A stretch of 64,000 nucleotides of DNA. Source: an uncultured Planctomycetota bacterium. GTDB taxonomy: Bacteria; Planctomycetota; Planctomycetia; Gemmatales; Gemmataceae. The notes beneath the pieces were generated by a model. That model saw only the letters and a program-made list of their open reading frames with translations. It had not been told where the DNA came from and searched no databases. The stretch spans positions 64,001-128,000 of the forward strand of contig CAWKHF010000008.1 of assembly GCA_963849325.1 (NCBI GenBank), in the 5' to 3' direction. The position numbers and the translations under genes are program-made. Below are positions 18,568-39,218 of the stretch, one piece after another (the first letter of the stretch is position 1; every line of letters begins with the position of its first letter).

Positions 18568-18588
18568 CGCTTCTATCTCCAAAAGAAG

Positions 18589-20332: not shown

Positions 20333-20361
20333 GTACGGTTCCTCTCCCAGCCGCCAGGCCC

Positions 20362-20685
20362 TCAATGCCCGGCGGTCAACTTCAGGCCGATGATACCGAT
20401 GAGGACCAGGGCGATGCACGCCAGCCGAAGGAAGGTCGCCGGCTCGGAGAACAGGACAATGCCCAGGATGGTCGTGCCGACGGCCCCGATGCCTGTCCAC
20501 ACGGCGTAAGCCGTGCCGATCGGCAGAGTGTCCACGGCCAGCACGAGAAAGTACGAACTCACCATCACGGCCAGCACCGTGAAGACGCTGGGCCAAAGCT
20601 TCGTGAAGCCGTCGGCGTACTTCAATCCGATCGCCCAGCCGATCTCGAACAATCCGGCAATCAGCAGGTACAGCCATGCCCTCAT
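20362..20685 (-). CDS. sugE: SMR family transporter, SugE/Gdx type
   Basis: AWLYLLIAGLFEIGWAIGLKY, LPIGTAYAVWTGIGAVGT, GIIGLKL. Confidence 0.88.
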   Translation of the reverse strand: MRAWLYLLIAGLFEIGWAIGLKYADGFTKLWPSVFTVLAVMVSSYFLVLAVDTLPIGTAYAVWTGIGAVGTTILGIVLFSEPATFLRLACIALVLIGIIGLKLTAGH

Positions 20686-20698
20686 CGCGGCTCCGGGA

Positions 20699-21291
20699 TC
20701 AATGTACGTGGCGGTCGTCATTCCACAGACGCAGGACCGGCTCGTCGAGGTTGTGTTCGTAGCCGAGGATGCTGAGCGAGGCGGTGGTCAGCAACAGCAA
20801 GCGCGCGTCCGGCACGGGCAGGCCGAGCCAGCGCGCCCCAGGACGCGCAGGAAATGTCCGTGCGAAAATAGCAGCACGTCGCCACCGACGCCGCGCAGCC
20901 GGGCGATGACACGGTCGGCTCGTGCGCCAACGGCGTCCAGCGATTCGCCGCCAGGGCAGCCATCGCGGAACAGATACCAGCCGGGACGCTCCTTGCGGAT
21001 GTCGGCAGTGCGCTTTCCCTCGTATTCACCGTAATCCCACTCGACCAACTCGGCGTCGGTTTCGGCCCGCGCACCGAAGCCGGCCAGCTCGCACGTCCGC
21101 TTCGCCCGCTGCAACGGACTGGTCAGCACCTTGGCGAAGTGCGTGCCCTTGAGGCGCTCGCCGAGGTTGCGGGCGTTGCGCTCGCCGCGCTCGGTCAGCG
21201 GGATGTCGGTGCGGCCGGTGTGCTGGCCCGACAGCGACCACTCCGTTTCGCCGTGGCGAGCGAGGTAGATTTTCGGGAATTTATCGCTCAT
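20699..21291 (-). CDS. Histidine phosphatase family protein (frameshift ~20835)
   Basis: LARHGETEWS, TSPLQRA, EWDYGEYEG, FSHGHFLR; C-terminus LGYEHNLDEPVLRLWND. Confidence 0.9.
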
Positions 21292-21322
21292 GGTTTGACC
21301 TCCGATGCTAAGAAGCTCTAAT

Positions 21323-21443
21323 CCAAAGAGCCTCACGCAAAGGCGCAAAGGGCGCAAAGAAATACAAAAAATAAGTGCCAGTCGCTTTGATCTTCTTCTC
21401 TTTTCCTTTGCGCCCTTTTGCGCCTTTGCGTGAGGCTCTTTGG
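21323..21443. repeat. 9-nt-periodic inverted-repeat element
   Basis: ccaaagagcctcacgcaaaggcgcaaagggcgcaaag ... ctttgcgcccttttgcgcctttgcgtgaggctctttgg. Confidence 0.9.
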
Positions 21444-21474
21444 TTGAGAGGCTCCAAGCCGCAAGCGGTCCGTC

Positions 21475-21740
21475 TTACGCCCCCTTCTCAACGTGCATGG
21501 CGGGGCTCCATTTCCACTCGCGCACCTCGGGCATGTCCTCGCCGTGTTTGTGGACGTACTGTTTGTGCTCGATCCGCTTGTCGCGGATGGCCTGCTTGGC
21601 GTAGGCCGCCCGCGCTCCCAGCGCCGGCACGCGGTCGATCACGTCGCCGCGGCAGGCCATGACGACGTTGGGATCGCCGCCCTGGTCGTTGCTGGCCCAC
21701 TCCCAGATGCCGATGCCGGCCGTGCTCGTCTTCGCGCAGG
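21475..21740 (-). pseudogene. xfp: Phosphoketolase remnant (C-terminal pieces only, internal deletion)
   Basis: GIGIWEWASNDQGGDPNVVMAC.GDV fused directly to IDRVP.LG.RAAYAKQ..RDK.IEHKQY...HGEDMPEVREWKW. Confidence 0.8.
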
Positions 21741-21961
21741 CTGCGAGATGATTGGTCACGACCAGCCGGAATTCTTCGGCCATCGTCGCGCGGTCGATCT
21801 GCTCACCCCGTTTCACCGGCAATTTCAAGACCAGGGCGTTGACGGTGATGTCGTTTCGGATTTCACACGAGAGGACGGTATATCGCAGGTTGTCGCCCTT
21901 GATCCTCATATTCCCCTCGCGCTGGAACAACCTTTCGTTTCGCGGCGATGCCGATATTCCG

Positions 21962-22993
21962 CTATCCCTCGCCCCGTACCGCGCGCACGAACGCCTCGAA
22001 GTTGGCGACCGGCGTGCCGCGATCGACGCCGTGATTGAGGTTGACGATGTGTCGCCGACCGCCGCCAGCCGCCACGCAGGCGCGCGTCGCCGCCGTCACC
22101 TGCTCCGGCGTACCCGCACGCAAAATCTCCTCATCCACGTTGCCCTGAAAGACCAGGTGCGGATAGTCGCGCCGCGCCGCCGCCAGATCGTGACGCACGC
22201 CCAGCGAAACCACGTCCGCCCCCGACGCCGCCATGAGCGGCAGATACGGCCCTTCCTTGACGAACAGGATGCGCGGTACGCCGGCCGCCTCGCGGAAGAT
22301 CGTCTCCTGGCGCGGCTGCGCCCACGCCTCGTATTCCGTGCGGTCGAGCAGGCCGGCCCACGAGTCGAAGAGTTGGTACACGTCGGCCCCCTCGGCGATC
22401 AGCGTGCGCAGGAAGTGGACCGTCGCGGTCGTGAGCCGGTCGAGCAGGGCGTCCCAGACGCGCGGCTGCTCGGCGGCGAAGCGGCGCGTGGCGGCGATGT
22501 CCTTGCCGGTGCCGATGCAGTACGTCGCCACGGTGAACGGCGCCCCGGCGAAGACCAGCACCGGCAGTTCGCCGCGCAGCTCCTGACGTACCAGACGCAG
22601 CAGATCGCGGATGTGCTGAAAGCGCCGCGGGTCGGGCTGTACCTCCAGACGTTCGACGTCGGCGAGCGTGCGGATGGGATGATCGGGCACCGGGCCTTGC
22701 GACGGCTGAAGGACGAAGGGTTGTCCCATCGCCACCGGCAGCGTGGTGATGTCGTAAAAGAGGATGATGCCATCGACGCCGAAGCGGCGCGGCAACAGCG
22801 ACGCTTTGGCGCTCAGCTCGACGTTCTCGGAGAACTCGTAGAACGACAGGCCGTCGCGGACGCGGTTGAATTCGGGGTCCCAGCGTCCGGCCTGGCGCAT
22901 GGCCCAGACCGGCGGCCGTTCGACGGCCTCGCCGCGCGCGGCACGAACGAGCAGATGAGGAGAAGGGGCGGCCGAGGGCGGATCGTTCGTCAT
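21962..22993 (-). CDS. hemE: Uroporphyrinogen decarboxylase
   Basis: PPVWAMRQAGR, FAGAPFTVATY, QLFDSWAG, QGNVD, NLNHGV. Confidence 0.9.
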   Translation of the reverse strand: MTNDPPSAAPSPHLLVRAARGEAVERPPVWAMRQAGRWDPEFNRVRDGLSFYEFSENVELSAKASLLPRRFGVDGIILFYDITTLPVAMGQPFVLQPSQGPVPDHPIRTLADVERLEVQPDPRRFQHIRDLLRLVRQELRGELPVLVFAGAPFTVATYCIGTGKDIAATRRFAAEQPRVWDALLDRLTTATVHFLRTLIAEGADVYQLFDSWAGLLDRTEYEAWAQPRQETIFREAAGVPRILFVKEGPYLPLMAASGADVVSLGVRHDLAAARRDYPHLVFQGNVDEEILRAGTPEQVTAATRACVAAGGGRRHIVNLNHGVDRGTPVANFEAFVRAVRGEG

Positions 22994-23035
22994 GGCGTGT
23001 TCCTTCCCTGCCGTTCGGCGCTCAGAAGCTGTAAC

Positions 23036-23146
23036 TTTTTGGCGAGCGGGGGGCGTAAGCCCCCTGTTTTTCGCCTTTTTGGCGAGCGGGGGGCGTAAGC
23101 CCCCTGTTTTTCGCCGTCAACAGGGGGCTTACGCCCCCCGCTCGCC
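23036..23146. repeat. REP cluster: two 40-bp direct copies plus one inverted copy
   Basis: (tttttggcgagcggggggcgtaagccccctgtttttcgcc)x2, then aacagggggcttacgccccccgctcgcc. Confidence 0.9.
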
Positions 23147-23248
23147 TATTAGGTTAGTGCCTCTCAGGCTCATTCTACGGTAAATGTCTCGGAATGGGCT
23201 GGTTTGCACCGACGCGGTTTGTTACATCTCCGAGCGAGGAGGCGCGGA

Positions 23249-23926
23249 ATGGTCCGATTAGCACTAGTGGGTTCGGATCAGCTGGTGGATCACGTGGAGA
23301 TTCCCCCTTGGGTGATCGACCTAGATTCCTTTCGGCGTTGGGCGGACAGTGACGACTTCCCCGACTGGGGCCGCATCGACTATATCAAAGGCGAGGTCTG
23401 GGTTGACATGAGTAAGGAGCAACTCTTCACGCACCTCGCCGTCAAAAATGAATTCAACATCGTCCTCGGCTCGATGGTCAAGATGGGGCAGTTGGGTCTT
23501 TATCTGCCGGACGGAGTGTTACTGAGCAACGTGGATGCCGACATCGCCGTGAACCCCGACGCTCTCTTCGCCTCCACGGACGCTCTTGCGGATCGCCTCC
23601 GCATTCTGGAAGGCAAGAAAGGCGGTTACGTTGAAATGGAAGGCTCCCCCGACATGGTGCTGGAAGTGGTGAGTGACAGTTCCGTTCGCAAAGACATGCA
23701 GCAGCTGCGCCAGGATTACTGGACGGCCGGCATCCGCGAATACTGGCTGGTCGATGCCCGGCCCGAACCGCTGATCTTCGACATCCTGCGTCACACGCCC
23801 AAAGGCTACCGCGCGACTCCGAAAAGAGACGGGTGGGTCAAGTCGGCCGTGTTCGGCAAATCGTTCCGCCTAACGCAGCGGCCGAACACCCTGGGACATC
23901 CCGAATATACCCTGGACGTGCGCTGA
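23249..23926 (+). CDS. Uma2 family PD-(D/E)XK endonuclease-like protein
   Basis: IDYIKGEVWVDM, VNPD, PDMVLEVVSDSS..KD, Y..AGIREYWLVD. Confidence 0.9.
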   Translation: MVRLALVGSDQLVDHVEIPPWVIDLDSFRRWADSDDFPDWGRIDYIKGEVWVDMSKEQLFTHLAVKNEFNIVLGSMVKMGQLGLYLPDGVLLSNVDADIAVNPDALFASTDALADRLRILEGKKGGYVEMEGSPDMVLEVVSDSSVRKDMQQLRQDYWTAGIREYWLVDARPEPLIFDILRHTPKGYRATPKRDGWVKSAVFGKSFRLTQRPNTLGHPEYTLDVR

Positions 23927-23953
23927 CATTGCTCATCTTCCTCGGACCAAGGT

Positions 23954-24688
23954 TTATCTTTCCAGCTTCGTTCCCACGTACAGCGTCGCAATCCCAAACG
24001 TCAGCGGATGCCAGTACACGTCCGTCAGACCGTGGCCGCGCAGCTTCTCGGCCAGCGCCTCGCCGTCGGGAAATTCCAGCACGCTGGCCGGCAGGTAGTT
24101 GTAGGCGTTGTCGCGGCTGCGCGACAGCATCTGGCCGACGCACGGCAGGACCCAGCGAAAATAAGCACGATACAGCCGGCCGAACAGCCAGTGGCGCGGC
24201 CGCGAAAACTCCAGGATCGCCACCCGTCCGCCCGGCCGCGTCACGCGCACCATCTCGGCCAGGCCTCGATCCGTGTCGGTCACGTTGCGCAGGCCGAACG
24301 CCACCGTCGTCAGCTGGAAGGTATCGTCGGCGAAGGGCAGGCGCTGCGTGTCGGCCTCGACGTAGCGGATACGGTCGGCGGCGCCGCGGCGGCGCGGTCT
24401 TGTCGCGGGCCGGCAGCAGCATCGGCAGACAGAAATCGGCGCCGAAGATCGGCACACGCTGGCCGGCGGCGCGGTCGTAGGCCAGGGCCAGGTCGCCGGT
24501 GCCGGTGCAAACGTCGAGGATGGGGCGCTGTCGTCGAACCGTGGCGGCGCCAGCCGCGTCGTCCGCCAGCGCCAGTAGCGATCGACGTTCAGGCTGAGCA
24601 GGTGGTTGAGCAGGTCGTAGCGCCGCGCGATGTCGCCGAACATCGTGCGGATGCGCGATTCACGCTTGTCGAGCAGGCTGCGCGACAC
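23954..24688 (-). CDS. ubiE: UbiE/MenG C-methyltransferase (compensating frameshifts ~24400-24525)
   Basis: [27 protein letters not shown] in the alternate frame, [31 protein letters not shown]. Confidence 0.9.
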
Positions 24689-24872
24689 GATGCTCCCTCA
24701 TGGATGGCGGAGTCGCGGCGCGGTTGCGAGCGCCGCGTTCTCCTCATACTATAGCGCCACGGATCGACGAGGGCCGCCGGCGGCTTGGCACCAAGCCGCC
24801 AGCGGCCTCTTTGATGACCGTCGACCGGGCCGATTGTCCCCGGATTGTCACGAAACCGAGGCGAGGTGGGCC

Positions 24873-26391
24873 ATCCGCATTCTGCTGGCGGCCTCTGAGG
24901 TGGTCGGCTTCGCCAAGACCGGCGGACTGGCCGACGTCGCCGGCGCCTTGCCGCCGGCCCTGGCCCGACGCGGCCTCGAATGCGCCGTCATCCTGCCCCT
25001 GTACCGCTGTGCTCGCGCCGCCCAGCCGGCCCCCGAACCCACCGAACACACCTTCGAGCGTGCCCATCCGCGACCGCTGCCGTCGCTGGCCGGCTGTGGC
25101 GCGCGACACTGCCCGACTCAGACGTACCTGTCTGTCTGGTCGAGCAGGACGACTACTTCGACCGCGACGACCCCGGACGACGGCCGCGGCCTGTACCAGT
25201 TCACGACGCCCAACGGCGGCCGCCGCGACTACGCCGACAACTGCGAACGCTTCGTCTTCTTCTGCCGCGCCGTCCTGGAAGCGCTCCGCCTGCTCGACTT
25301 CTGGCCCGACGTGCTGCACGTCAACGACTGGCAGACCGGACTGGTCCCCGTCTATCTGCGCGAGTTGTACCGCCGCACCGGCAGCGACCGGCTGCGGCCA
25401 GCTACGGACACATCGGCACCCTGTTCACCATCCACAACATCGCTTACCAGGGCACGTTTTGGCACCTGGACATGCCGCTGACCGGCCTGGACTGGCGGCT
25501 GTTCAACTACCGCCAGCTGGAGTTCCACGGCCAGCTGTGCTGCTCAAGGCCGGCATCGTCTTCGCCGACCTGGTCAACACCGTCAGCCCGACCTATGCCC
25601 GCGAGATCCAGACGCCCTACTACGGCTGCGGCCTGCAGGGCGTCCTCAACGAGCGGCGCGAGCGTCTGTTCGGCATCGTCAACGGTGTCGATTACCGCGT
25701 CTGGGATCCCGCCACCGACCCGCATCTGCCGGCCGACTACGATGCCGACGACCTCCAGCCCGGCAAGCCGCGTGCAAGGCCGACCTGCAACGGCGCGAGG
25801 GCCTGTCCGTCGAGCCGCAGGCACCGCTTCTGGGCGTGGTGGCCCGGCTGGTCGAACAGAAGGGCGTCGATTTGATCGTCAAGGCTGCTCCCGCGCCTGC
25901 TCGACCAGGGCGCTGCAACTCGTCGTGCTCGGCGAGGGCGATCCGGCGTATCACCGTATGCTGGAGGAGCTGCATCGCCGCTATTCCGGCCGGGTACGAC
26001 GCTGACCGTCGGCTTCGACGAGGACCTCGCTCACCGCATCGAGGCCGGGGCCGATCTGTTCCTGATGCCGAGCTTGTACGAGCCGTCCGGCCTCAATCAG
26101 CTCTATAGTATGAGGTACGGCACGCCGCCGGTGGTGCGGAGCACCGGCGGCCTGGCCGACACCGTCGTCGATAGCGACGCCGCCACGCTGGCGGCCGGCA
26201 CGGCGACGGGTTTCTGTTTCACGCCCTACACGGCCGACGCCCTCCGCGAGACGGTCGAGCGCGCCCTGGCCCTGTACCGCGGCCAGCCGCAGCCGTGGCG
26301 GCAGGTCGTCGTCACGGCCATGCGGCAGGATTGGTCCTGGGACCGCAGCGCCGGAGAGTACGTGCGGCTGTACGAGCGAATTGCGGGATGA
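24873..26391 (+). CDS. glgA: Glycogen synthase (many frameshifts; the start codon reads ATC)
   Basis: [83 protein letters not shown]. Confidence 0.92.
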
Positions 26392-26417
26392 GAAGCGACA
26401 GCAGGCGAAGGACGGAG

Positions 26418-26517
26418 GAAAGTGAAAATTGAAAAGTAAATAAATTGAAAAATGAATAGGCGATGACCGATATCTTCTCATTTTTCAATTTTTACTTTTC
26501 ACTTTTCAATTTTCAAT
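26418..26517. repeat. Heptamer (TGAAAAT/TTTTCAY) inverted tandem repeats
   Basis: gtgaaaattgaaaagt...tgaaaaatga / tcatttttcaatttttacttttcacttttcaattttca. Confidence 0.85.
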
Positions 26518-26541
26518 GAATCGACCTGACGGAGTGATGGC

Positions 26542-28805
26542 ATGGCGGACATCGCACTGGCATTCTTCTGGCACCAGCATCAGCCGTACTACCCCGACGA
26601 CGTGGCCGGCGAAAACCCCATGCCGTGGGTGCGCCTGCACGGCGTCAAGGACTACTACGGCATGGCCCTGCATCTGCTGGAATTCCCGGAGATGCACTGC
26701 ACCATCAACCTCGTGCCCAGCCTGCTGCTCCAGTTCGCGCCTACACCGAGCACAAGGCCAGCGACCGCTTCCTCGATGTGTCGCGCATCCCCGCCGACGG
26801 TCTGAGCGAAGACGACTGCCTGTTCCTGCTCGACCATTTCTTCATGGCCAACCCGGACCACATGATCCGGCCGTTCCCGCGCTACGCCGAACTGTACCAG
26901 CGCCGCGGCCGCGGGCGCGGAACAGCGCCCGCGAGGCTCTGCGCCGCTTCCAGGCCCGCGACCTGCGCGACCTGCAAGTGTGGTTCAACCTCACCTGGGT
27001 CCATCCCGCTGGCCTTCGAGCGCGACGACTGCCTTCGCGCCCTGCGCGACAAGGGCCGCCATTTCACGCGAGGACGACAAGGCCGCCCTGCTGGCCAAGC
27101 ACCTGGACATCCTCAAGCAAGATCATCCCGCTGCACCGCAAGCTGGCCGCGAGCGGGCCAGGTCGAGCTGACGACGACGCCGTACTTCCATCCGATCCTG
27201 CCGCTGCTGTTCGACAAGAAGCTGGCCCGCGAGGCGATGCCGGAGGTCAAGCTGCCGCGCTACACCGGCGGCTATCCCGAGGACGCCGCCGTCCACGTCC
27301 GCCGCGCCGTCGAGCAGCACGCGCGCCTCTTCGGCCGCCGGCCGCAGGGCATGTGGCCGGCCGAGGGATCGGTCTGCCAGACGATGATGCCGCTGCTGGC
27401 CCAGCACGGCATCCGCTGGATCGCCACCGACGAGGAGGTCCTCAGCGCCTCGACGCACGGCTTGGTCAGCCGCGACGGCAAGGGCCACGTCCGCAACCCC
27501 GAGCAGCTGTACCGGCCTTACAAGGTGCGCGAGGGCGATGCCGAGCTGGGCATCGTCTTCCGCGATCACGCCCTGAGCGACCTGATCGGCTTCCACTATC
27601 AGCGCAGCGAGCCGGCGGCCGCCGCCGACAATTTCCTCGGCTGCCTGCACGGCATCGGCCAGGTAGTGCACGGCGGACGAACCGGCCCTGGTCAGCGTCA
27701 TCCTCGACGGCGAGAACTGCTGGGAGCACTATCCCGGCGGCGGCGTCGCCTTCCTCCGTGCCCTCTACCAGCGCTGCACCAGCACGCCGGGCGTCACGCC
27801 CGGTGAAGATCGGCGACTACCTGGAGCAGTACCCGCCGCGCGACACGCTGCCGCACCTGTTCGCCGGCAGCTGGATCAGCCACAACTTCGCCATCTGGAT
27901 CGGCCACGAGGAGGACAACACGGCCTGGGACGCCCTGCACCGCACGCGCGAGTATCTGCTGCGCAAGACGGCAGTGACAGGCGACAGGAGACAAGGTGAC
28001 AAGGTGAACAGTGGCACCGATCCGGCGTCTGTCCCTGGTCCCTGTCCCCTGTCCCCTGTCACCACTTCGAAGGGCGTGGGAGGAGCTGTACATCGCCGAG
28101 GGCAGCGACTGGTTCTGGTGGTACGGCGACGACCACTCCAGCGCCCAGGATGCCCTGTTCGATTACCTGTTCCGCAAGCACCTGCAGAACGTCTACCTGC
28201 TGCTCGGCGACGAGCCGCCGCCGGAGCTGGCCCGGCCGATCAGCCGCAAGGGCCAGCGCGTCCACTACACGCACGCCGCGCGCCTTCCTCGACGTGAAGA
28301 TCGACGGCCGCTAGACCTTTTTCGAGTGGGTCAGCGCCGGCCGCTACACCTGCCAGAACGAGCGCGGTACGATGGCGATGGCGACGCAGGGGCCGCTGCG
28401 AAGAGCTGTACTTCGGCTTCGACCTGTCGCTGCTGCTGATCCGCATTGACTGCGATCGGCCCGGCGAAGAGCGCCCTGGCGGACTTCGACGTCTGTGCGC
28501 ATCGGCTTCGTCGAGCCGGCCGGCTGCGAGGTGCGCGTGTCCAATCCCGGCCGGCCGGACCAGCGGGCTGAATTGCTCCGCGATGGCGTCGCCGGTACCC
28601 GGTGTCCGGTCCGGCGGTGGGCATCGACCAGATCGCCGAGGCGGCCATGCCGTTCGACGCCCTGGGCGTCGAGGTGGATCAGCCGCTGCAGTTCTTCGTC
28701 GAGCTGCTGCGCGACGGTCAGAGCCACGACCGCGCCCCGCGCGAGGGCGCCATCGTGCTGACCCGGCCGTCGCCTGACTTCGAGCAGATCATGTGGGACG
28801 TGTAA
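26542..28805 (+). CDS. Glycoside hydrolase family 57 (amylopullulanase-like; many frameshifts and one in-frame TAG)
   Basis: [54 protein letters not shown]. Confidence 0.9.
27974..28063. repeat. Heptamer-type inverted repeat inside the GH57 CDS
   Basis: gtgacaggcgacaggagacaaggtgacaag ... tgtccctggtccctgtcccctgtcccctgtcacc. Confidence 0.75.
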
Positions 28806-28815
28806 CCAAGAAATA

Positions 28816-28953
28816 TAAGCCACAGATAAACACAGATAAACACAGATGAAGAAAAATAGAATGAAAACGAATTCGCGCGGAGGACAGATTGACGAGTTTG
28901 TCCCTCATTTTTGTGAATTTTATCCGTGTTCATCTGTGTTCATCTGTGGTTAA
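28816..28953. repeat. 9-nt-periodic inverted-repeat element
   Basis: ccacagataaacacagataaacacagat ... atccgtgttcatctgtgttcatctgtgg. Confidence 0.88.
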
Positions 28954-29009
28954 TTGGTTTTATGGACCAAACGCTGCAAGGGTTCGCCGCTTCACTGCGA
29001 GGTTTGCCG

Positions 29010-30035
29010 ATGCCGGAGCTGCGCAAGGATCCGATCGTCGGCCGCTGGGTCATCATCGCCACCGACCGGGCCAAGCGGCCGGTGGCGCCCGAGAGCGAGC
29101 CGCTCGTCCGCCGGGCAGCCTTCTGCCCCTTCTGCGAGGGCAACGAGGACAAGACGCCGCACGAGATCCTCGCCTACCGCGAGCGCAACAGCCAGCCCAA
29201 CGAGAAGGGCTGGCGCGTCCGCGTCGTGCCCAACAAGTTCCCCGCCCTGCAGATCGAGGGCGACCTGAACAAGCGCGGCGACGGCATCTACGACAAGATG
29301 AACGGCATCGGCGCCCACGAGGTCATCCTCGAATGCCCCTTCCACGAAACGCAGCATGGCCAACCTCACCGAGGACAACATCCGCGAGGTGCTCTGGGTC
29401 TACCGCGACCGCCTCGTGGACCTCAAGAAAGATCCGCGGCTGGTCTACGGCATGGTGTTCAAGAACGTCGGCGCCGCCGCCGGCGCCTCGCTGGAGCACT
29501 CGCACTCGCAGCTGATCGTCACGCCGATCGTGCCGATCAACGTCTGGGAGGAGATGACCGGCTCGCTGGAGTTCTTCAACTACCGCGGCCGCTGCATCTA
29601 CTGCGACATGATCCATCAGGAGCTGGCGACCGAGAAGCGCATCGTCCTGGACACGCCGAACTTCGTCAGCTTCTGCCCCTACGCCAGCCGCTTCCCGTTC
29701 GAGACGTGGATCCTGCCCAAGACACCACAACAGCCACTACGAGAACATCCAGAAGAACGAGGTGGACGAGCTGGGCACGGTGCTCAAGACGATCCTGCTG
29801 AAGCTGGAGGCGGCGCTGGACGAGCCGGCCTACAACTACATCATCCACACCTCGCCGTTCGACACGCAGATCGCTGCCGCACTACCACTGGCACATGGAG
29901 ATCATCCCGCGGCTGACGCGCGTGGCCGGCTTCGAGTGGGGCACGGGCTTCTACATCAACCCGGTGCCGCCGGAGCAGGCGGCGGAGTTCCTGCGGGAGA
30001 CCGAGGTGGATGTCACGGCGGGACGTCGGAAGTAG
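29010..30035 (+). CDS. galT: GalT-like HIT-superfamily nucleotidyltransferase (frameshifts)
   Basis: [61 protein letters not shown]...AGFEWG. Confidence 0.88.
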
Positions 30036-30094
30036 GCCGCTGTTGAAAGGGGATCGAGTGAAAAAATGATAGGGGATGGGAAAAACGACCGCGC

Positions 30095-30400
30095 TCACGA
30101 TTGGCCCCGCATCATGGCCCCCAGGTGTTTCTGCGCCTCGGTCAGGCGAGGAGTCTCGTTCAAGGCAGCCCAAAACGCGAACTGCTCCTCGGCAGTCAAA
30201 GTAATAGTCTGCTCCCGCGCAGCGCGCACCTCGCGCTGAGCCTGAGCGACCGTCACCTCACGCACGTAATCGCTGATACTGATTCGCCGCAGTTCCGCCG
30301 CCTGGACCAGAAACGCTTTGCTTTCGTCGTCGAGGCGGACCACAAGAGAGCGGGCGGTTCGGCCCTTCTTCGACTGGCCGGATGAGCGTGCCTTGGTCAT
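30095..30400 (-). CDS. DUF1778 (TacA/AtaR-like) RHH antitoxin, no toxin present
   Basis: SLVVRLDDESKAFLVQAAEL..ISISDYV...ITLTAEEQFAFWAAL..P. Confidence 0.82.
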   Translation of the reverse strand: MTKARSSGQSKKGRTARSLVVRLDDESKAFLVQAAELRRISISDYVREVTVAQAQREVRAAREQTITLTAEEQFAFWAALNETPRLTEAQKHLGAMMRGQS

Positions 30401-30424
30401 GGGACTAATCTCCTTCGTCCCTAA

Positions 30425-30447
30425 TTGAATAGCAAATGGATATACAA
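30425..30447. promoter_or_regulatory. Putative operator upstream of the DUF1778 gene
   Basis: Imperfect palindrome TTGAATA-N9-TATACAA in an AT-rich patch. Confidence 0.4.
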
Positions 30448-30490
30448 TCAAGTCTAGTGACAGACCCCAGTCCGTCGCGGACGTTCCGCG

Positions 30491-33400
30491 CTAGCGGCTC
30501 ATTCGGGTCGCCGATGTGCGCAGCACCCGCGCTTCCACGTCGGCGCCCTCGAAGAGCAATTCCTCGCCGTGTTGGCGGACCAACTCGACGAGGCGGCGCA
30601 TGAAGCCCAGTCCGGCGGCCGCCTGCGGCACGTCGAGCACTTGCGGCGACGCCTCCAGCAGCGGACGCGGCAAACATACGACCGTCTTGGCCCGCGCCCG
30701 CGTCAGGGCGACGTTGAGACGGTTCAGCCCGTAAATGAACTCCGCTTCGCGCAAGGCGAACTCGGGATCGGACACGCCGTAACTGACCAGCACGGCGTCG
30801 GCTTGCTGTCCCTGCATCTTGTCCACCGTATCGACGAACGGCGAACAGTGCCACCGCCGTCGCGCCGCCAGCTCGCGCTGAATGGCCCGAATCTGGGCAT
30901 GATGGGGACTGACGACGAAGACGCCGTGACGAAAGAAGGCATCGTCGTCCGCGTAGGGTCGGCCGTTGTCTTCGCGCAGCCCGTCGCGCAGGGCCGTCAC
31001 CAATTGGGCGATCAGGTCGGCCTCGATCGGATTGGCCCGCGAGGCGCGGATGCCATCGAGGACGACCACGACGAGCGGAAAATCCGGATCGAGGCACGCC
31101 GCCACGAGCGGATCGAGTCCGCGTTTGGGCGTGAAGGCGAGCCGGTGATGGGCCACGGCGGCGCTGCCGCACTGGTAGCGCGGGCCGTACAGCAACTCGG
31201 CGGCACAGCCGGTCAGCACGTCGTTCATGCGGAAGTTTTCCAGCAACGGCCGGACGAGACGACTCTCGGCGATCGGCGGATCGGAGCAGGGACAGACGGC
31301 CTCGAGGATGGAGCGGTGCAGCACGCGGTTCGCCGGGCGGCGTATCGGGATACAGGCCGGCAACGATGGGCGGCAGCTGCAAGTGATCGCCGGCCAGCAC
31401 GAGTCGGCCGTCGGTCCCGGCCAGGTAGGCGGCGATGGCCGCCTCCGGCACGCGCACCTGCGACGCCTCGTCGATCACCACCAGGTCGAACGGCGGCAGT
31501 TCCTGGCGTTTCTTGAGACAGGAATAGACCGTGGCGCCGAGCACGACCTGCTCGCCGTCGCTGAGCCACCCGCCCAGGTCCGCCTCGGCCACGACCTCGA
31601 CGCCGGGGTTGACGCCGCGCCAGTATTTTCGCCTTGCCGAGTAGCAAATCGAATGCCTCGGCCGGCAGGACGCGGCGTCGCTGGACGACCTGGCCCAGCA
31701 GGTTCTCGATGGCGGCATGCGTGAAGGCCGTCGCCAGGACACGGAAGGGCTGGCCGGTGCGGGCATGGGCCGCCGCCAGGGCGACGATGGTCGAGGCCAG
31801 GAAGTGCGTCTTGCCGGTGCCCGGCGGACCCCAGACCGCCGTGACGCGCTGGCCGCCAATCGCTCGAAACGCCTCGCGCTGGCTGGGCGTGAAACCGAGT
31901 TGAGCTTCCAGGCGCGTCGCATTCATCCGCACCTTCGCCGGCAAAGGCAGAGGCGTGGCGGTCTCCTCGGGCTGACGCAGCAGTCGCAGGAACAGGCTGG
32001 CTGGCCCGTCGTCGGCGCCCGTGGCGAGATCCAGTTCTTCGAGGAAGCGCACCAGCGTGTCGGTCGTGAAATCGGTGAAGCGCGGATAGAGCAGGAAGCG
32101 CTCGCCGGCCGCCGGCGCGCCGCCCTGGAAAGGGCGGCTGTAGTGCAGGCACAGACGAACGGCCCCGCCGGGCGCGGTGTGGACGTCCTCGATGCCGACG
32201 ATGGCGCGGTGAGGGCTATCCGGCCCACCGTGGATCTTGTTGCGATACCAGTAATCGGCGTACTCGACGCGAGCGCGGCGGCCGTCCTCGTTGTCGCGCA
32301 CCAGCAGCCAGGCCGGAAAGCCTCCCGTCTCCGGCTCGACGATCAGGCTGCCGATCACCTCCATCTCCGCCGCGACGATCGCCTTCAATTCGATGACTTG
32401 GCCGAGCAGGACTTGCGTGGCCCGCGCCTCGGCGCGGGCCTCGCGGACGGAGAGACAGCCCAGTAAACTTTCGTAGCGCGCGAAGAAGGCCAGGCGCGAC
32501 AACAGCGGCTCACGGATGCCGGCGCCCGTGGGCAGCGCGAAGCGCGGCGGCCAGGCGAACAGGTGCTTCTCGGCTCGTTGCCGCACGGCCCGGAGCAGAG
32601 CGGCCACCGCGAACAGATAAAGACGTGCTTGCTGATGGATCTCTTCAAGGTTCGTCGTCTGGCCACGATACCAGGCCGCGTGCAGCGCCTCGGCCCGCAG
32701 ACCGTGGCCGAGCGGGAAGTGATAATAATCGCGGCGCGTGTAGTGGAACGGACTGTCCAGCGCCGCCAGCACCTCCGGCAGCGTGTAGCTGACCTCGACC
32801 GGCAGGGCCAGCAGTCGCCCGACGGCGGATTGCAGGACGACCAGCGGATACGCCACTTCGCCGCCGGGATGGCGGTCGGCCCGCATCAGCTCCGGACCCT
32901 GGAAATGAAAGAGCAGCGTCATCGCTTTTTCGGCCAGGCCCGCCTCTTGCAACGCTTCGAGTAGGACGGTCAACAGTAGGCCGCGCTCGTCCTCGGTGTG
33001 GACGTAGGCTTGCAGAGTCAGCTTGTCCTTCCATTCCGACCGCTCCTCGTTGTAGCGATGGACGCGGCGAAACAGGTCATCGAGCCGCGTGAGGAATCGT
33101 CGCCGTACTTGCGCCGCCTCTTCGGGCCGACGGGCCAGCCATACGCACGGTCCCGCTTCGCCCTCGTCGTCCGTCAACGAGGGGGGGAACACGGCCTGGC
33201 GCACGTCCTCGCGGCCGGTGACGTACAGGCCGGCGAGGTAGATGGCCTGGCCGAGCGGTTCGCGCTGCAGCGTCAGGAAGACGGCGAGGTTTTCGCCGCG
33301 CGGCAAGTCCGTGGCGTCGGCGCCGTGCAGCCGCGGCTCGCGCGTCTGGAGGGCGGCGACGCACACGGCCAGTCGGTGTCGCTGGCCCGCCAGCGAGGCG

Positions 33401-34317
33401 CAGCGATCGAGCACCTCGTCGGCGTCGGCCCGCTTGAGGAAACCGCCGAGTTCCGTCAGCGTGTGTACGCCGGCCTCCTCGCGCAGGTGTCGTTTGCCGT
33501 AGGGCGTCAACTGCGCCAGGCGCGACACGTCGTTGGTGCGGCGCATCTCGTCGCGGCACGAGTCGAAGAACTCGCACCATTCGCAGCGGTCGTACAGGTG
33601 CCAGTGCGCCTCGCGTCCCTCGCCGGCGAGAATGCGGCCGAGGTCGTGGCGGAGAAAGCGCTCCAGGTGCGGTCGAAAATCGCCGAGGTTGAACGGCTCC
33701 GGCGCCGGCTGTTGGCCCAGCCACACGGCGCCGCGCTCGAGATCGACGTGGGCGTCGATGCCCTCGGCGTCGAGCACCGCCTGCAATTCCAGGGCGTAGA
33801 AGAGGACCTGCACGCGATGCGTCAGCTTCAAGGCCGCGCCGCGCTTGAGATCGACGATGCGCAATAGCCGGCCGCCGTCCGGGCTGGGCAGGACGGCGAT
33901 CAGGTCGGGATGATTGTCGCTGATGAGGACTCGTCGGCGATCGATGCCGTGGGCGTCGTAGAAGCTCGGCGGCGGCGCCAGTGTCGGTTGATAGAGGAAG
34001 CGACCGGCCGGCTCGCGGCGCAGATGGCGCAGCGTCTGGGCCAGCGGCAGGCGGCGCGTGTGCAGTTCCCCGGAACCGGCGGCGACGACGACCTGGCCGA
34101 CAAGGAGACGCTCGACGACTTCGCGTTCCCATTGGTAGCCGCTGGCGAGAATGGATTCGATGAGCGGGCTGCGATCGAAGGCGGGTTTGGGGATGTCCTG
34201 GCGTTGGCGTTCGCGCGGCGTGGCCGAGCTGTAATAGAGGAAGCGTTCGCAGTCGTGGAAGAAGTAGCGGGCGATGGTGGACGGACTGATGCGGAACGGC
34301 GGCGCGACAGCAGGCAT
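30491..34317 (-). CDS. Cas4/RecB-like [4Fe-4S] nuclease fused to an SF1B (Dna2/Upf1-like) helicase, ~1275 aa (frameshifts ~31625, ~31335)
   Basis: ISPSTI...HDCERF; HPDL..RIVDLK; HRVQVLFY; CEWCEFFDSC; WGPPGTGKT; IDEASQ; AGDHLQLPP; NFRMN; TVDKMQG; NRLNVALTRAR. Confidence 0.88.
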
Positions 34318-34333
34318 GGTCGGATCTCGATCG

Positions 34334-36887
34334 TCATTTCCGGAAACTCTGCAACAGCGCTCCGAACGCTTGCAGCGCCTGCTGGACCACTTCGGGAGGA
34401 GGCACCGGCAGCTTGATGTAACTCTCGCCGGTTTGCTCATCGCGTTGCACCAGCGACCGCGGCGCGGGACCATTGGCCGACGGCGCCGCGGCGCCCCCGA
34501 TACCGAGTTGCTGCAACAGCGCCATGCCGGTCTGCAACAGCGCCGACCACGGATCGGCGGTCGGCGTTGACCCCTCCTCCGTCTCGGCTTCGGCCGCCAG
34601 CGGCGAACGGACCATGCGCCTCCGCCCACGCCGACCCGCGCTCGGCTCCGGTCCCGCTCGCTCGTCGGGTGGGACGCGCAGCGCCTCCTCGGCGTCCTCG
34701 ATCATCGCTTCGGGGATGGCCGACGTCGCCGACTCGACCGTCTCCATGAACTTGTTGAGCCGGCTGCCGCCCAGGAAGACCTCCTTGTCGCCGCCGTCCA
34801 GCACGCCGGCGAACAGCGATTTCTTGAACTTGAGCACCGCCAACATGCCTTCCTCGATCGTGCCCTGGGCCACGAAGTTGACCACGCGCACCGGCTGCGT
34901 CTGGCCGAGCCGATGCACCCGGCCGATGCGCTGCTCCAGCACCGCCGGGTTCCACGGCAGGTCCATGTTCAGCACCACCGAGGCGTGTTGCAGGTTCAGG
35001 CCGACGCCGCCGGCGTCGGTGGACAGGAACACCCGGCAGCTCGGGTCATCGCGGAAACGATCGATCAGGTCCTTGCGCTTCGTGCTCGGCACGCCGCCGT
35101 GGAAGAGGACGTGTTCCCAGCGCCGCCCCTCGAAGCGCCGCACCAGCAGCTCGTGCATGCGCAGCCATTGGCTGAACACCACCGCCTTGGCGCCCGGCCG
35201 TTCGCAGCACCTCGTCGAGCAGCGTCGCCGCCTCGTCCGCCTTGGCGCCCATGGTCGCTGCTGATGATCGACGAGGTAGCTGCTGTCGCAGGCCATGCGC
35301 ATGCGCTGCAGCGCGATCATCAGCCGCCGCTGGTCCGCCTCCGACAGAAAGCGGTAGCGCCGCCACTTCTGCACGATGCGGGCGACGATCTCCAGGTTCT
35401 CCGAGTGGTGCTTGCGCTGCAGCTCCGTCATCGGCACGAAGATGTTGGTGTCGATGCGCTCGGGCAGCTGGTCGAGCACCTCGTCCTTGTGTCGCCGCAC
35501 CAGGATCGGCTCCAGCGTCTTGCCGATGCGGTCGAGGTCGCGGTAGCCGACGACCTTGCCGATCGGGATCGCGCACCTGGTGCTCGTGCAGCAGGCGGAA
35601 GGTCGGACCAAGGCGAAAGCGATCGACGAACTGCACGATGGAGATGAGTTCCTCCAGGCGGTTCTCCAGCGGCGTGCCGGTCAGGACGAGGGCGTAGGGG
35701 GCGGCGATCTTCTTGACGCTGCGGGCGGTGCGCGTGCTCCAGTTCTTGATCCGCTGGGCCTCGTCGAGGATGACGAGATCGGGCGCCCACGCCTCGATCA
35801 GGTCGAGGTCGCGATAAACCGTATCGTAATTGGTGATTTTGAAGAAGGCATCGGCGGCGAAATGGACCTCGCGGCGCGGACGCAGGCCGCCGACGACCTC
35901 GACAGAGCGGGCGCTGCAACGCTCGATCTCGCGCTGCCACTGGTGCTTGAGCGAGGTCGGGCAGACGATCAGGACGCGCTCGACGCCGAAGAGGCGGGCC
36001 ATGATCTCGGCGGCGGCGATGGCCTGGATCGTCTTGCCCAGGCCCATCTCGTCGCCGAGCAGGCAGCGGCCGGCCCGCGCGGCGAACAGGGCGCCCTCGC
36101 GCTGGTAGTCGTACAGCGACACTTTGAGGAGGTCTTTGAAGGCGGCGCTGCGGCTGCCGCGCGGGAACGCCTCGGCGATGCGCAGGCGGCGGCGCTCGGC
36201 GTCGCGCACCTCGGCGATGAAGGCGAGGACGTCGTCGTGGCAGCGCACCTCGTGTTCGTGACGGTTGGCGTCGGCGAGGAACGTCTCGAAGCGGCCGAAC
36301 GCCTCCGGCAGCAGGCTGCCGTCCACATCGAAGTAGCGCGTCGCCAGGCGAGCCAGAGCGGCGGGGCAGTCGCCGCCGGGCCGGAAGCGCACCTCGCGGC
36401 GGGCGCCGTAGTGCAGATAGACCTCGCTGGAAGGCGGCTGAAAGCCGGCACGGAGGGCGGCCACGCCGCCGCGCTTGCGCTCCAGCACGGCCAGCGCGAA
36501 TTCGATGTGCTTGCAGGTGCCGAGCGTGTTGGTGGCGAAGTCGGGGCAGGAGCAGTAGTTATCGCCCGGCTGCGCGCCGCGGACGTGGACGCGATAGGTG
36601 TTTTGCGTCTGCGGATTGGTGACGTCGAAGTCGGAGAAGATCGGATGATCGCCGACGTTGGTCAGGCGATAGTTCTGCTCGCGGCCGAACTGCCGCCGCA
36701 GCTGGACCTGCCAATCTTCCAGCGACATGCCCTCCGGCTTGTGCAAGCGCGACAACTTGGGTGGCCGGCGTTGTTTCGCTCGTGGCTCCGTCGGCGTTCG
36801 TTGTCGCGGCTGGCGCGGCGGTTCTGTCGTCGCCGGCCGGCGACGCGGCGGGTTGTTCGGTTCGAGCTTTTTCGGTCGCCATTGCAT
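34334..36887 (-). CDS. SWIM zinc finger + SNF2-family ATPase (frameshifts ~35570, ~35205-35260)
   Basis: CSCPDF...CKH; LYDYQ; GDEMGLGKT; LDEAQRIKN; LTGTPLEN; VFSQW; STDAGGVGLNLQ; DLPWNPA..EQRIGRVHRLGQ. Confidence 0.92.
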
Positions 36888-37115
36888 GAAGCATTCTCCC
36901 CTGTCTCCGCCGCCGAACGCCGGGCGGATGGTTCCCTCGACATTGTACGCGGGACGGGGACGAATTGCTGCCGCTCGTTACCAGCGCTGGCGGCTTCGGT
37001 AATCGGCGGGAATTGGGGGTGCATCGGTGAGGCGGATTCGTCATACTACAGCGCCCCAAGCTCAGCCGGGCACGGCCGTCAGGATGACGGCCCGGAAAGG
37101 AGAAAGGATTCCGCC

Positions 37116-39218
37116 ATGCCGCTTCGCTTCATTTTCGCGCTGCACAATCACCAGCCGGTCGGCAACTTCGGCCACGTCTTCGAGCACGCCTACCGCGACA
37201 GCTATCGGCCGTTCTTGGAGCTGCTCGACGAATACCCGGAAATCCCCATCGCCCTGCACACCAGCGGGCCGCTGATGGAATGGCTGGTCGAGCACAAGCC
37301 CGAATACGTCGATCGACTGCGTCGCATGGTTCGCCGCGGACAGGTCGAGATCCTGGGCGGCGGCTTCTACGAGCCGATCCTGCCCATGATTCCGCCGTGC
37401 GACCGCGTCGGACAGATTTCAACCTATAAAAACCATCTGGAAAATATCCTGGAAACGCGCGTGCGCGGCGCATGGGTGCCGGAACGAGTCTGGGAGCAGA
37501 ACCTGGTGACGGACCTCGCCGACGCAGGCGTCGAGTACACGGTCCTGGATGACCTGCACTTCCGCCAGGCCGGCGCCGAGGACGGCCAGTTGTTCGGCTA
37601 CCACCTGAGCGAAGACAACGGCCGATTGCTGCGTCTGTTCGCCGCCGCCGAGCCGCTTCGTTACCTGGTGCCCTACCGCGATCCCGCCGAGACGCTGGCC
37701 TACTTCGGCGAGTTGGCCGCGCGCCATCCCGACGCCGTCGTCGTCTTCGCCGACGACGGCGAGAAGTTCGGCGTGTGGCCGGAGATGTATCGCCACTGCT
37801 ACGAGCACGGCTGGCTGCGCCGCTTCTTCGACGCCCTGCGCGGCAACCGTCACTGGATTCAGCTGTGTACCTTCGCGCAGGCGCTGGACGAAACGAGTCC
37901 GGTCGGCCGGCTCTACCTGCCCGACGCCAGCTACCGCGAGATGACCGAGTGGGCCTTGCCGTTATCGCGGCTGTGCGATTACCGCGGTCTGGTCGGTGAA
38001 TTGCAGCACGATCCGCGCTGGGGCCGATTGCAGCGCTTCCTCCGCGCCGGCAACTGGCGCAACTTCAAGGTGCGCTATCCCGAGACGCAGGAGATGTATG
38101 CGCGCATGCTGCAAGTCAGCCGCCGCCTCCAGGACGCCAACGTCGATGCCGATACCTTGGCGAAGGCTCGGCGGGAGCTGTATCGCGCCCAGTGCAACTG
38201 TCCATGGTGGCACGGCACCTTTGGCGGCATCTACCTGCCGCACCTGCGCAGCGCCGTCTACGAACACCTCCTCGCGGCCGAGAACTTGCTGCGGGAGGCA
38301 GCGCCGCCTGCCGCCAACGGGATCGAGGCCGAGACGGCCGACTTCAACCTGGACGGCACGCCGGAGGTGTGCCTGGGCAACGATCATCTGGCCGCGTACT
38401 TTCACCCGGCCGTCGGCGGCTGCCTGTACGAACTCGACCTGCGGTCCATCCGCCACAACCTGCTGGCCACACTGGCGCGGCGGCCGGAGGCGTACCACGA
38501 CGCCATCCGCCACCATCACGGCGCGGCCTGGAAGCAGGTCGGACTCGATCACATGCTCCAGTACGACGACTACCTGCGCAAGAGCCTGATCGATCACTTC
38601 TACGAACCCGGCGTGACGCTGGAGCAGCTGGCCACGCGGCAGGAGCGCGAGCTGGGCGATTTCGTCACGGGCCGCTATGAGCATCGCCTGGAGCGCGGCA
38701 ACGGCGAGGCTCGGCTCATCCAGTGGCGCAACGGCCAGGTCGGCGAGCAGGCCGTGCGCGTCACCAAGGAAGTGCGCCTGACCGGCGACGGCGACGCCCT
38801 GGAAGTGTGGTACATTCTGGAGAATTGCCCGCGGCAAAATCCGCTTTACTTCGCCGTCGAGTTCAACTTCGCCGGCCTGGCGGCGGGCGCCGACGACCGC
38901 TACTTCTATCATGCCAGCCAGGCGCGGGCCGGCCAGCTGCAAACGCGGCAGGATTTGCCCGACGCCGACAAGATTGGCCTGGTCGATGAGTGGCGCGGCC
39001 TGGACGTGTCGCTGTCGCTGTCGCGGCGCGGACGCATCGGGGCGTTCCCCATCCAGACGGTCAGCCAATCGGAGGGCGGCTTCGAGCTGGTGCATCAGAG
39101 CACGGTTGTGATGCCGCAGTGGACCGTCGAGGCCGACGAGCACGGCCGTTGGGAAGTGACGCTGAGTCTGAAGTTGGACGCGGCGCGAGCGCTGTCGCGC
39201 TTGCGGAGTGCGGCGTAA
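37116..39218 (+). CDS. GH57 alpha-amylase/4-alpha-glucanotransferase
   Basis: HNHQPVGNF, EILGGGFYEPIL, GAWVPER.WEQ, ADDGEKFG.WP, ASYREM.EW, AQCNC.WWHG.FGG.YLPHLR, TVSQSEGGFE. Confidence 0.93.
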   Translation: MPLRFIFALHNHQPVGNFGHVFEHAYRDSYRPFLELLDEYPEIPIALHTSGPLMEWLVEHKPEYVDRLRRMVRRGQVEILGGGFYEPILPMIPPCDRVGQISTYKNHLENILETRVRGAWVPERVWEQNLVTDLADAGVEYTVLDDLHFRQAGAEDGQLFGYHLSEDNGRLLRLFAAAEPLRYLVPYRDPAETLAYFGELAARHPDAVVVFADDGEKFGVWPEMYRHCYEHGWLRRFFDALRGNRHWIQLCTFAQALDETSPVGRLYLPDASYREMTEWALPLSRLCDYRGLVGELQHDPRWGRLQRFLRAGNWRNFKVRYPETQEMYARMLQVSRRLQDANVDADTLAKARRELYRAQCNCPWWHGTFGGIYLPHLRSAVYEHLLAAENLLREAAPPAANGIEAETADFNLDGTPEVCLGNDHLAAYFHPAVGGCLYELDLRSIRHNLLATLARRPEAYHDAIRHHHGAAWKQVGLDHMLQYDDYLRKSLIDHFYEPGVTLEQLATRQERELGDFVTGRYEHRLERGNGEARLIQWRNGQVGEQAVRVTKEVRLTGDGDALEVWYILENCPRQNPLYFAVEFNFAGLAAGADDRYFYHASQARAGQLQTRQDLPDADKIGLVDEWRGLDVSLSLSRRGRIGAFPIQTVSQSEGGFELVHQSTVVMPQWTVEADEHGRWEVTLSLKLDAARALSRLRSAA

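Follow-up and report, generated by a model that had tools for sequence, protein, structure and literature searches.

A SWIM-SNF2 ATPase gene beside a Bad-type nuclease-helicase gene in a Gemmataceae genome: a candidate two-motor DNA-processing module

A 64,000-nt stretch of DNA from an uncultured planctomycete of the family Gemmataceae (assembly GCA_963849325.1, contig CAWKHF010000008.1, positions 64,001 to 128,000; hereafter the window, numbered from its first nucleotide) was found to carry a pair of co-oriented genes on the minus strand (36887-30491), the first encoding a SWIM-SNF2 ATPase of ~850 amino acids (aa; gene 1) and the second a protein of ~1275 aa in which a Cas4/Dna2-type nuclease is joined to a superfamily 1B (SF1B) helicase (gene 2). 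An earlier reading of the same letters without database searches (the sequence-only reading) had described two co-oriented genes 16 nt apart, and both the common strand and the spacer (34333-34318) were borne out. The locus is best read as a two-gene chromosomal operon, probably intact in the living organism; coordinates of its features are collected in Table 1.

Orthologues of gene 1 (~850-860 aa) start with approximately 45 basic, variable residues, followed by a conserved part (residues ~50-260) with the signature C112-x-C114-x10-C125-x-H127 of a SWIM zinc finger, for which zinc binding is predicted. The four residues were invariant in 14/14 orthologues, with a sub-threshold Pfam SWIM score (17.0 bits vs a cut-off of 19.6). 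A complete series of SNF2 motifs was read from the translation (GDEMGLGKT, ILDEAQRIKN, LTGTPLENR, VVFSQW, STDAGGVGLNLQ and WNPAVLEQRIGRVHRLGQ) and Pfam recognised SNF2-rel_dom (3.6e-31) and Helicase_C (9.4e-24). With both RecA lobes and motifs I-VI present, the protein belongs to the SNF2 ATPases, motors that track on double-stranded DNA without unwinding it. A profile of the 14 orthologues had the Sulfolobus Rad54-like SNF2 core 1Z63 as its best solved match (E 6e-61), eukaryotic remodelers coming next. Downstream of the motor, a variable low-complexity linker leads to a conserved helix (DPWxGLLQxGMALLQQ), and the conserved C-terminal tail of 40 aa might conceivably act as a docking element.

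The SWIM-bearing N-terminal 260 aa gave an AlphaFold 2 (AF2) model with a predicted local distance difference test score (pLDDT) of 76; a structure search with this model returned no PDB fold at E <= 0.001 (ZSWIM8 only at E 2), and no PDB sequence matched this part of the protein. Among the curated NCBIfam families none reached its cut-off for gene 1, helic_SCO1167 (SCO1167/SCO6262 family) scoring 231 bits vs 1200 and the pilus-regulating Snf2 family 227 bits vs 1100. PADLOC matches were to ZorD (2.6e-62) and DpdE (4.4e-58). Identity with DpdE (NCBIfam, 133 bits vs a cut-off of 500), with ZorD of Zorya (121 vs 1500 bits) and with DrmD of DISARM (142 vs 610 and 138 vs 950 bits) was rejected, the partner genes of the last two also being absent from the window. 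What gene 1 has in common with ZorD, DpdE, DrmD, BrxHII, SCO1167/SCO6262 and the pilus Snf2 proteins is the SNF2 core: the defence and NCBIfam matches span residues ~252-700 only, leaving the tail and the first 250 aa, with the SWIM finger, unmatched. A comparison of the SNF2 protein with plasmids matched 1115 records, at 27-36% identity and in no case with a coverage of at least 80%.

In gene 2 (orthologues ~1256-1357 aa) all motifs of the N-terminal nuclease domain were located, namely FFHDCERF (C23, 34251-34249), ISDNHPDLI (D138), DLK (D156, K158), QVLFY (Q170xxxY174) and CEWCEFFDSC (C245, C248 and C254 in a CxxCx5C arrangement, 33585-33556). Residues C23, D138, D156, K158, Y174, C245, C248 and C254 were invariant in 18/18 aligned relatives, archaeal ones included; Pfam Cas_Cas4 matched 12 of the 18, and Foldseek aligned the gene 2 model with Cas4 8D3L_I (target-normalised template modelling score (TM) 0.54, prob 1.0). 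The helicase at the other end of the protein shows the motifs GPPGTGKT, DLVVIDEASQ, LAGDHLQLPP, NFRMN, VDKMQGQQAD and LNVALTRAR and is matched by Pfam AAA_11 and AAA_12. In a profile search with gene 2 the best solved match was the helicase half of mouse DNA2 (E 2.9e-33), with IGHMBP2 and Upf1 behind it. Modelling of residues 1-895 with AF2 (pLDDT 83, predicted TM (pTM) 0.74) gave a structure whose top Foldseek match was likewise DNA2 (5EAN; E 2.7e-5), at a TM of only 0.16 over 969 columns.

Between nuclease and helicase lies a central region of ~470 residues that is conserved across gene 2 relatives and for which neither Pfam (18 members searched, E up to 1) nor the PDB sequences gave a match. 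It was modelled as an alpha/beta domain (~335-640), a beta-barrel (642-745) and helices running into the helicase. A fold like that of RNase H or of PolB exonucleases was considered for this region on the basis of Foldseek matches to DNA polymerase alpha cores (E ~2e-3, TM 0.15), and was not adopted: Pfam RNase_H_2 was absent in 18/18 members, and because a DxE motif is replaced by [T/S]-x-[Q/E/N]-x-[D/E] in the first strand, the resemblance is only a weak lead.

These results uphold the SWIM finger and full SNF2 motif set that the sequence-only reading had ascribed to gene 1, as well as the nuclease, the split four-cysteine set, the central region, the SF1B helicase and the overall Dna2 architecture that it had ascribed to gene 2. 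The best PADLOC match of gene 2 was DpdJ (6.7e-60), but identity with DpdJ was rejected, the match being restricted to positions 46-464 of the 2112 in the model and leaving out the YprA-type superfamily 2 (SF2) helicase. Other nuclease-helicase proteins matched by PADLOC (MkoA/MkoC, Hhe, PDC-S37, PDC-S68) aligned over the helicase core only, and no further named nuclease-helicase defence protein appeared in the PADLOC results for the pair. RecD was also discarded (recD models, 40 bits vs a cut-off of 310).

Gene 2 fits the three-domain Bad (bacterial DNA2-like) family, a placement based on the published description and on relatives in Methanoculleus rather than on an alignment with the Geobacillus protein. 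Bad of Geobacillus stearothermophilus was characterised biochemically by Wilkinson et al. (NAR 2020; PMC7430649, cited here and below from excerpts of the paper). According to these excerpts, it consists of a nuclease and an SF1B helicase with an unexplained central domain between them, contains an Fe-S cluster, acts as a single-stranded DNA (ssDNA)-dependent ATPase, 5'-3' translocase/helicase and ssDNA endonuclease, and has D150 and K815 as active-site residues, substituted in the mutants D150A and K815A (PMC7430649). The two residues correspond in position to D156 and K836 in gene 2, which shares with the family an iron-staple C...CxxCx5C nuclease (residues invariant in 18/18), an unexplained central domain that is absent from eukaryotic DNA2, and a C-terminal SF1B helicase with motifs I-VI. 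A supplementary figure legend places several Methanoculleus proteins in the Bad alignment (PMC7430649); our genome scan found, among the matches listed, full-length gene 2 relatives in Methanoculleus at 36-38% identity (E 0). The gene 2 product is accordingly best described, as a prediction from its motifs, as a putative iron-staple [4Fe-4S] PD-(D/E)XK endonuclease ahead of a 5'-to-3' SF1B motor, with a family-specific central region in between. While Geobacillus bad adjoins a Type III-like methyltransferase gene, gene 2 adjoins the SWIM-SNF2 gene and has no DNA methyltransferase gene nearby; a restriction module of Bad plus methyltransferase was rejected here, as the 32 window open reading frames (ORFs) scanned with Pfam held no DNA methyltransferase and only a UbiE-type methyltransferase.

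The likeness to eukaryotic Dna2 (mouse DNA2, 5EAN) lies in an Fe-S PD-(D/E)XK nuclease placed ahead of an SF1B 5'-3' motor. Gene 2 differs from it in the additional central region of ~470 aa (an extra domain of ~300 aa in the model), in the lack of an N-terminal OB or RPA-binding part, and in a nuclease domain that matches weakly by sequence. Given the large central insert and the overall TM of 0.16, gene 2 was not taken as an orthologue of eukaryotic or archaeal Dna2. Dna2 works with RecQ-type helicases in resection (PMC7430649, and likewise excerpts of PMC5393063). The pair also recalls RecBCD and AddAB in its logic of two motors and a nuclease, and AddB carries the same iron-staple nuclease (PMC7430649); in contrast to those complexes the second motor is of SNF2 rather than SF1A type, and homology is limited to the nuclease and a RecD-like core.

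This is a small family, a search with the N-terminal 800 residues of gene 2 having found 179 clusters (E <= 1e-30) among 1.84 billion representatives. Orthologues of gene 2 are uniform in length. Among the best 120 of 176 gene 2 matches (119 non-self), 99 of the 119 were 1256-1357 aa long, identity falling from 84% to 49%, and the named ones came from Gemmataceae, Planctomycetia and Bremerella cremea. Intact orthologues of ~850 and ~1275 aa showed up to 85% identity to the two genes, and with the N-terminal part of the SNF2 protein (first 440 aa) all 120 matches listed were at least 71% identical. Identity at rank 50 was 66% for the neighbouring glycoside hydrolase gene GH57 (falling from 87%), 70% for gene 2 and ~75% for SNF2; genes 1 and 2 therefore evolve at least as slowly as this metabolic enzyme. 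Both are real genes under constraint.

Whether the two genes stay adjacent in other genomes, as the sequence-only reading had suggested checking, was judged solely from contigs of identical size in the gene 2 and SNF2 match lists. Six such contigs were found (sizes 6714, 12801, 13193, 18416, 18888 and 27322), against 0.36 chance agreements expected at any one offset; of 1000 other offsets, not one gave as many as six. Contig metadata were patchy, the window's own SNF2 ORF being missing among the SNF2 matches listed. Five further pairs of contigs differed by exactly 55 nt (8749/8694, 5169/5114 twice, 4407/4352 and 15208/15153), which looks like two size conventions for the same contigs; if so, there would be more co-located SNF2/Bad pairs.

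Relatives outside this lineage were examined for their neighbours and domain partners. Six distant full-length relatives (loci L001-L006) were available. In one of them (L003, Syntrophorhabdaceae) the Bad-type gene is overlapped by an upstream gene for a UvrD-PD-(D/E)XK protein and followed by NERD-UvrD and RecQ genes; the four same-strand genes (L003, 7266-18285; the RecQ with an extra helix-turn-helix) form a dense helicase-nuclease cluster. Two Methanoculleus loci had nothing telling in their neighbourhood. Only four of the best 150 representatives were at least 1600 aa long; in three of them the module is fused with a helicase of the UvrD type, in the fourth with an RNase_T domain, and in none with SNF2. 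In these Bad-module fusions (P0361, P0365, P0380 and P0405) the UvrD-type SF1A helicase was C-terminal once and N-terminal twice, and the RNase_T domain was DnaQ-like; a bipolar protein combining SF1A, SF1B and nuclease would resemble a single-chain RecBCD.

On alphaproteobacterial plasmids the gene 2 module is split into a nuclease protein of ~770 aa and, following it, a DpdJ of ~2100 aa. The former aligns to residues 9-529 of a gene 2 orthologue (24% identity, E 4e-18) and keeps the cysteines and nuclease motifs, and residues 47-460 of DpdJ align to the gene 2 helicase half (39% identity, E 1e-57). This Dpd variant (DpdJ, PADLOC PDLC02895) resembles the planctomycete pair in combining a nuclease, an SF1B motor and an SF2 motor; it differs in that its SF1B helicase forms one protein with an SF2 helicase of the YprA type, while the SF2 motor of the planctomycetes is a separate upstream SNF2 protein. 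A Dpd system at the planctomycete locus was rejected, since DpdA, DpdB, DpdC and preQ0 genes were absent from the window (Pfam; PADLOC 0/46 other ORFs). The gene for the ~770-aa Fe-S nuclease overlaps the downstream dpdJ in three loci (L056, plasmid pSR-1 of Skermanella rosea, 28899-31211; L053, 5004-7289; L057, 8989-11295). Two of these nuclease proteins were tested against PADLOC and had no hit, and they are annotated as hypothetical only. In these Dpd islands the protein seems to be a component that has gone unlisted; for one DpdJ subtype, PADLOC 2.0 has no model of the nuclease partner.

When 61 N-terminal modules were compared in a quick FastTree analysis, the planctomycete-type sequences fell into one well-supported clade, which also includes the UvrD fusions; one of these fusions nests among the planctomycete-type sequences. 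Methanoculleus and L003 fell in a sister clade, and the split forms, L005 and L006 were long-branched outliers. Taken over its relatives, the nuclease-SF1B module is apparently always accompanied by a second motor, which may be SNF2 or of the UvrD or YprA type.

Alignment of intact orthologues back to the DNA revealed that neither gene reads through as assembled. In gene 1, residues 1-442 of the intact orthologue P0123 aligned to 36887-35562 (tblastn, 85% identity) and residues 441-857 to 35566-34337 (81%); in gene 2, residues 3-900, 898-1000 and 986-1271 of P0002 aligned in three frames. All resolvable frame breaks were insertions of a single nucleotide (GAT[C]GGC, CTG[C]GAA, GAAA[A]TAC and CCG[C]GTG). 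The pieces contain no in-frame stops or deletions relative to intact orthologues, to which they retain 79-86% identity, and in guanine-cytosine (GC) content at third codon positions (GC3) they equal the high values of other genes. Core genes of the window show the same kind of break: PriA (52386-54643) is split over two frames (52997-54643 and 52386-53432), as is phosphoglucomutase (18690-20283; 19777-20283 and 18690-19979), and the phosphoglucose isomerase (PGI), glycogen synthase-like and GalT-like genes are truncated, with partial Pfam model matches only. Because core genes are broken alike, intact orthologues exist, and identity and GC3 remain high, the frameshifts probably reflect assembly errors; the comparison points to these rather than to gene decay, and the advice of the sequence-only reading to polish them was apt. 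Frame breaks in core genes were seen at 17651-20283, 24700-25875, 29302-29913 and 52386-54643, and gene calls on this contig need frameshift-aware handling.

Table 1. Features of the SWIM-SNF2/Bad-type locus (positions in the window)
Feature	Position	Strand	Details
Divergent intergenic region, gene 1 / GH57 4-alpha-glucanotransferase gene	36888..37115	.	228 bp
Gene 1, SWIM-SNF2 ATPase	34334..36887	-	ATG at 36887, TGA at 34336-34334
SWIM signature CxCx10CxH, CSCPDFATNTLGTCKH	36507..36554	-	C112, C114, C125, H127 (translation)
SNF2 N-terminal RecA lobe	35568..36134	-	motif I 36056-36030, II DEAQ 35771-35742, III 35684-35658
Gene 1 frameshift 1	35562..35570, ~35568	-	extra C, GAT[C]GGC
Gene 1 self-compensating cluster of frame changes	35200..35262	-	...DH..GxKADEAATLLDE.LE... 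of orthologues spread over three frames
SNF2 C-terminal RecA lobe, Helicase_C	34901..35206	-	motifs IV-VI
Conserved 40-aa C-terminal tail of gene 1	34337..34456	-	behind variable low-complexity linker
Spacer between gene 1 stop and gene 2 start	34318..34333	-	16 nt
Gene 2, Bad-type Fe-S nuclease / SF1B helicase	30491..34317	-	ATG 34317-34315, stop 30493-30491
Cas4/Dna2-type PD-(D/E)XK nuclease domain	33523..34317	-	N-terminal ~265 residues, four Cys and nuclease motifs
Central region, aa ~335-800	31918..33315	-	~470 residues between nuclease and helicase
SF1B (Upf1/Dna2-like) helicase core and conserved ~50-aa C-terminal extension	30494..31890	-	C-terminal ~470 residues
Gene 2 helicase motifs	Walker A 31830-31807; II 31487-31458; III 31397-31368	-	translation
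Gene 2 frameshift 1	31620..31634, ~31625	-	extra A, GAAA[A]TAC
Gene 2 frameshift 2	31326..31369, ~31335	-	extra C, CCG[C]GTG

The operon promoter presumably lies inside the divergent region upstream of gene 1, where a promoter/terminator scan gave no sigma-70-like match; promoter/terminator, tRNA and repeat scans of the locus yielded nothing above chance. The same region contains two inverted repeats (36978-37002 and 37074-37092), one reading TTACC-N15-GGTAA with an inner AGCGCT and the other a 19-nt hairpin (GGCCGTCAGGATGACGGCC), which may be operator or 5' untranslated region elements. Across the 64-kb window GC content is flat and base composition looks native, a tRNA scan found no tRNA, and no repeats flanking the pair were detected by a repeat scan. 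DNA methyltransferase and integrase domains were absent from the 32 Pfam-scanned ORFs, and none of the 46 other window ORFs matched PADLOC at 1e-6. The neighbours are glycogen, sugar, haem and other housekeeping genes (glycogen synthase, GH57, phosphoglucomutase, PGI, GalT-like, hemE, gdhA and priA). Genes of sugar and glycogen metabolism surround the pair in a run (17651-29913 and 37116-39215), with no evident functional link to it, and two adjacent genes for sigma-70/ECF-type sigma factors are located at 8597-10119 on the minus strand.

Beyond the gene structure, domains, catalytic and cysteine residues, family placement, conservation and local context observed here, we infer a physical or functional coupling of the SNF2 and Bad proteins, their DNA substrates and their cellular role. 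Our preferred reading, to which we give a rough probability of 45%, is that the pair is a two-motor DNA-processing module, most likely serving chromosome maintenance through end resection or the processing of stalled forks or flaps. In such a module the SNF2 motor would engage or remodel duplex or branched DNA and would expose or feed a 5' single-stranded tail, which the Bad protein would thread, translocate along and cut. The parallel would be with eukaryotic Dna2 and its partner motor, not with a mobile defence system of the restriction type; Dna2 acts on forks remodelled by SNF2-family enzymes. A translocase and a degrading nuclease acting together had already been proposed in the sequence-only reading, and this agrees with the family at large, whose members are fused to or abut UvrD- and YprA-type helicases, although coupling at this locus is our own extrapolation. 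A more far-reaching version, in which a chromatin-remodeler-type SNF2 motor and Bad would constitute a core genome-maintenance machine of planctomycetes, the bacterial equivalent of Dna2 and its partner motor, for long-range resection or the degradation of remodelled forks, possibly replacing RecBCD/AddAB and with the SNF2 tail docked onto Bad, appears unlikely to us.

Several observations weigh against the two-motor maintenance module. None of the eight gene 2 contigs and none of the 11 SNF2 contigs of at least 100 kb agreed in size among the 120 matches listed for each gene, for which contig metadata are incomplete; this would be unexpected if adjacency were universal. Synteny with GH57 was at chance level, one same-size contig with each list (0.4-0.5 expected). 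No SNF2 gene occurred near the six distant full-length relatives within flanks of up to 10 kb per side (less at contig ends), and in a tblastn search of both SNF2 pieces against all 52 loci the best E was 0.18; the SNF2 pairing is therefore lineage-specific. Some relatives are also found in plainly defensive surroundings: L005 is flanked by GmrSD, a Pycsar-type TIR protein and a D12 methyltransferase, L006 belongs to a cluster resembling restriction-modification systems, and on S. rosea pSR-1 the split pair shares a complete Dpd island with DpdA, two DpdB, QueE, QueD, DpdF, DpdH and an integrase. For Bad itself, a restriction role has been proposed (PMC7430649).

The presence of these distant relatives in defence islands makes defence the main rival, and a live one. 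According to this explanation, which we hold to be somewhat unlikely, the pair would act against phages or plasmids independently of DNA modification and would have become fixed in the lineage; the SNF2 protein would scan DNA, and Bad, starting at ends or nicks, would degrade foreign DNA much as RecBCD or Hachiman does, no methyltransferase being needed. It would account for the position of gene 2 relatives in defence islands or beside methyltransferases (their own loci; PMC7430649), including the split form in plasmid Dpd islands, and for the fact that defence helicases are the top PADLOC matches of both proteins (DpdJ; ZorD and DpdE). These matches, however, cover generic motor cores only, and no NCBIfam model comes near its cut-off (DpdE, 133 vs 500). 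At the locus itself the defence role entertained in the sequence-only reading was not shown: PADLOC matched 0/46 other ORFs, no self/non-self component was found in the 64 kb, DNA methyltransferase, tRNA and integrase or other mobility genes are absent, composition looks native, the neighbours are housekeeping genes, and the orthologues are of uniform length and conserved at least to the level of GH57.

It is improbable, in our estimation, that the two, whether or not they are co-transcribed, are mere neighbours with separate functions, for instance a RapA-like, transcription-associated SNF2 protein next to a stand-alone Bad. Several phyla commonly have clusters of SNF2 look-alikes ~790-850 aa long (leads only), six distant Bad relatives occur without SNF2, and purified Bad is active alone as a monomer (PMC7430649), all of which such independence would explain; it is less easily reconciled with the 16-nt gap and common orientation, with six contigs in both match lists where 0.36 were expected, and with a family in which fusions or overlapping genes repeatedly bring in a second motor. 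Finally, that the genes are decaying pseudogenes with genuine frameshifts is scarcely credible: at least five frame changes do fall within 6.4 kb, but every piece is free of in-frame stops and deletions and resembles intact orthologues, GC3 is undiminished, and essential genes such as priA are broken likewise.

In the literature, no paper was found that joins SWIM, SNF2 and Dna2 in bacteria, and nothing was found that links planctomycetes with AddAB and RecBCD. Judged from titles and abstract openings, searches on bacterial SWIM-SNF2 zinc-finger helicases returned unrelated papers only, and no follow-up assigned Bad a cellular role. The pairing of Bad with a SWIM-SNF2 partner in Planctomycetes looks new, because the literature searched holds neither a bacterial SWIM-SNF2-Dna2 combination nor a cellular role for Bad; the Bad family itself has already been described. 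The statement of the sequence-only reading that the pair is not a named system thus needs dividing, as gene 2 fits a published family while the combination with SWIM-SNF2 is seemingly undescribed.

The locus adds to the Bad family a well-conserved lineage with a SWIM-SNF2 translocase as its partner, and offers the hypothesis that Bad-type enzymes are the nuclease arm of two-motor machines. Should the pair act in defence, it would constitute a new system that works without DNA modification and is assembled from components also used by Dpd. Should it be a repair module, it would represent an unexpected bacterial parallel to the SNF2-assisted action of Dna2 in eukaryotes.

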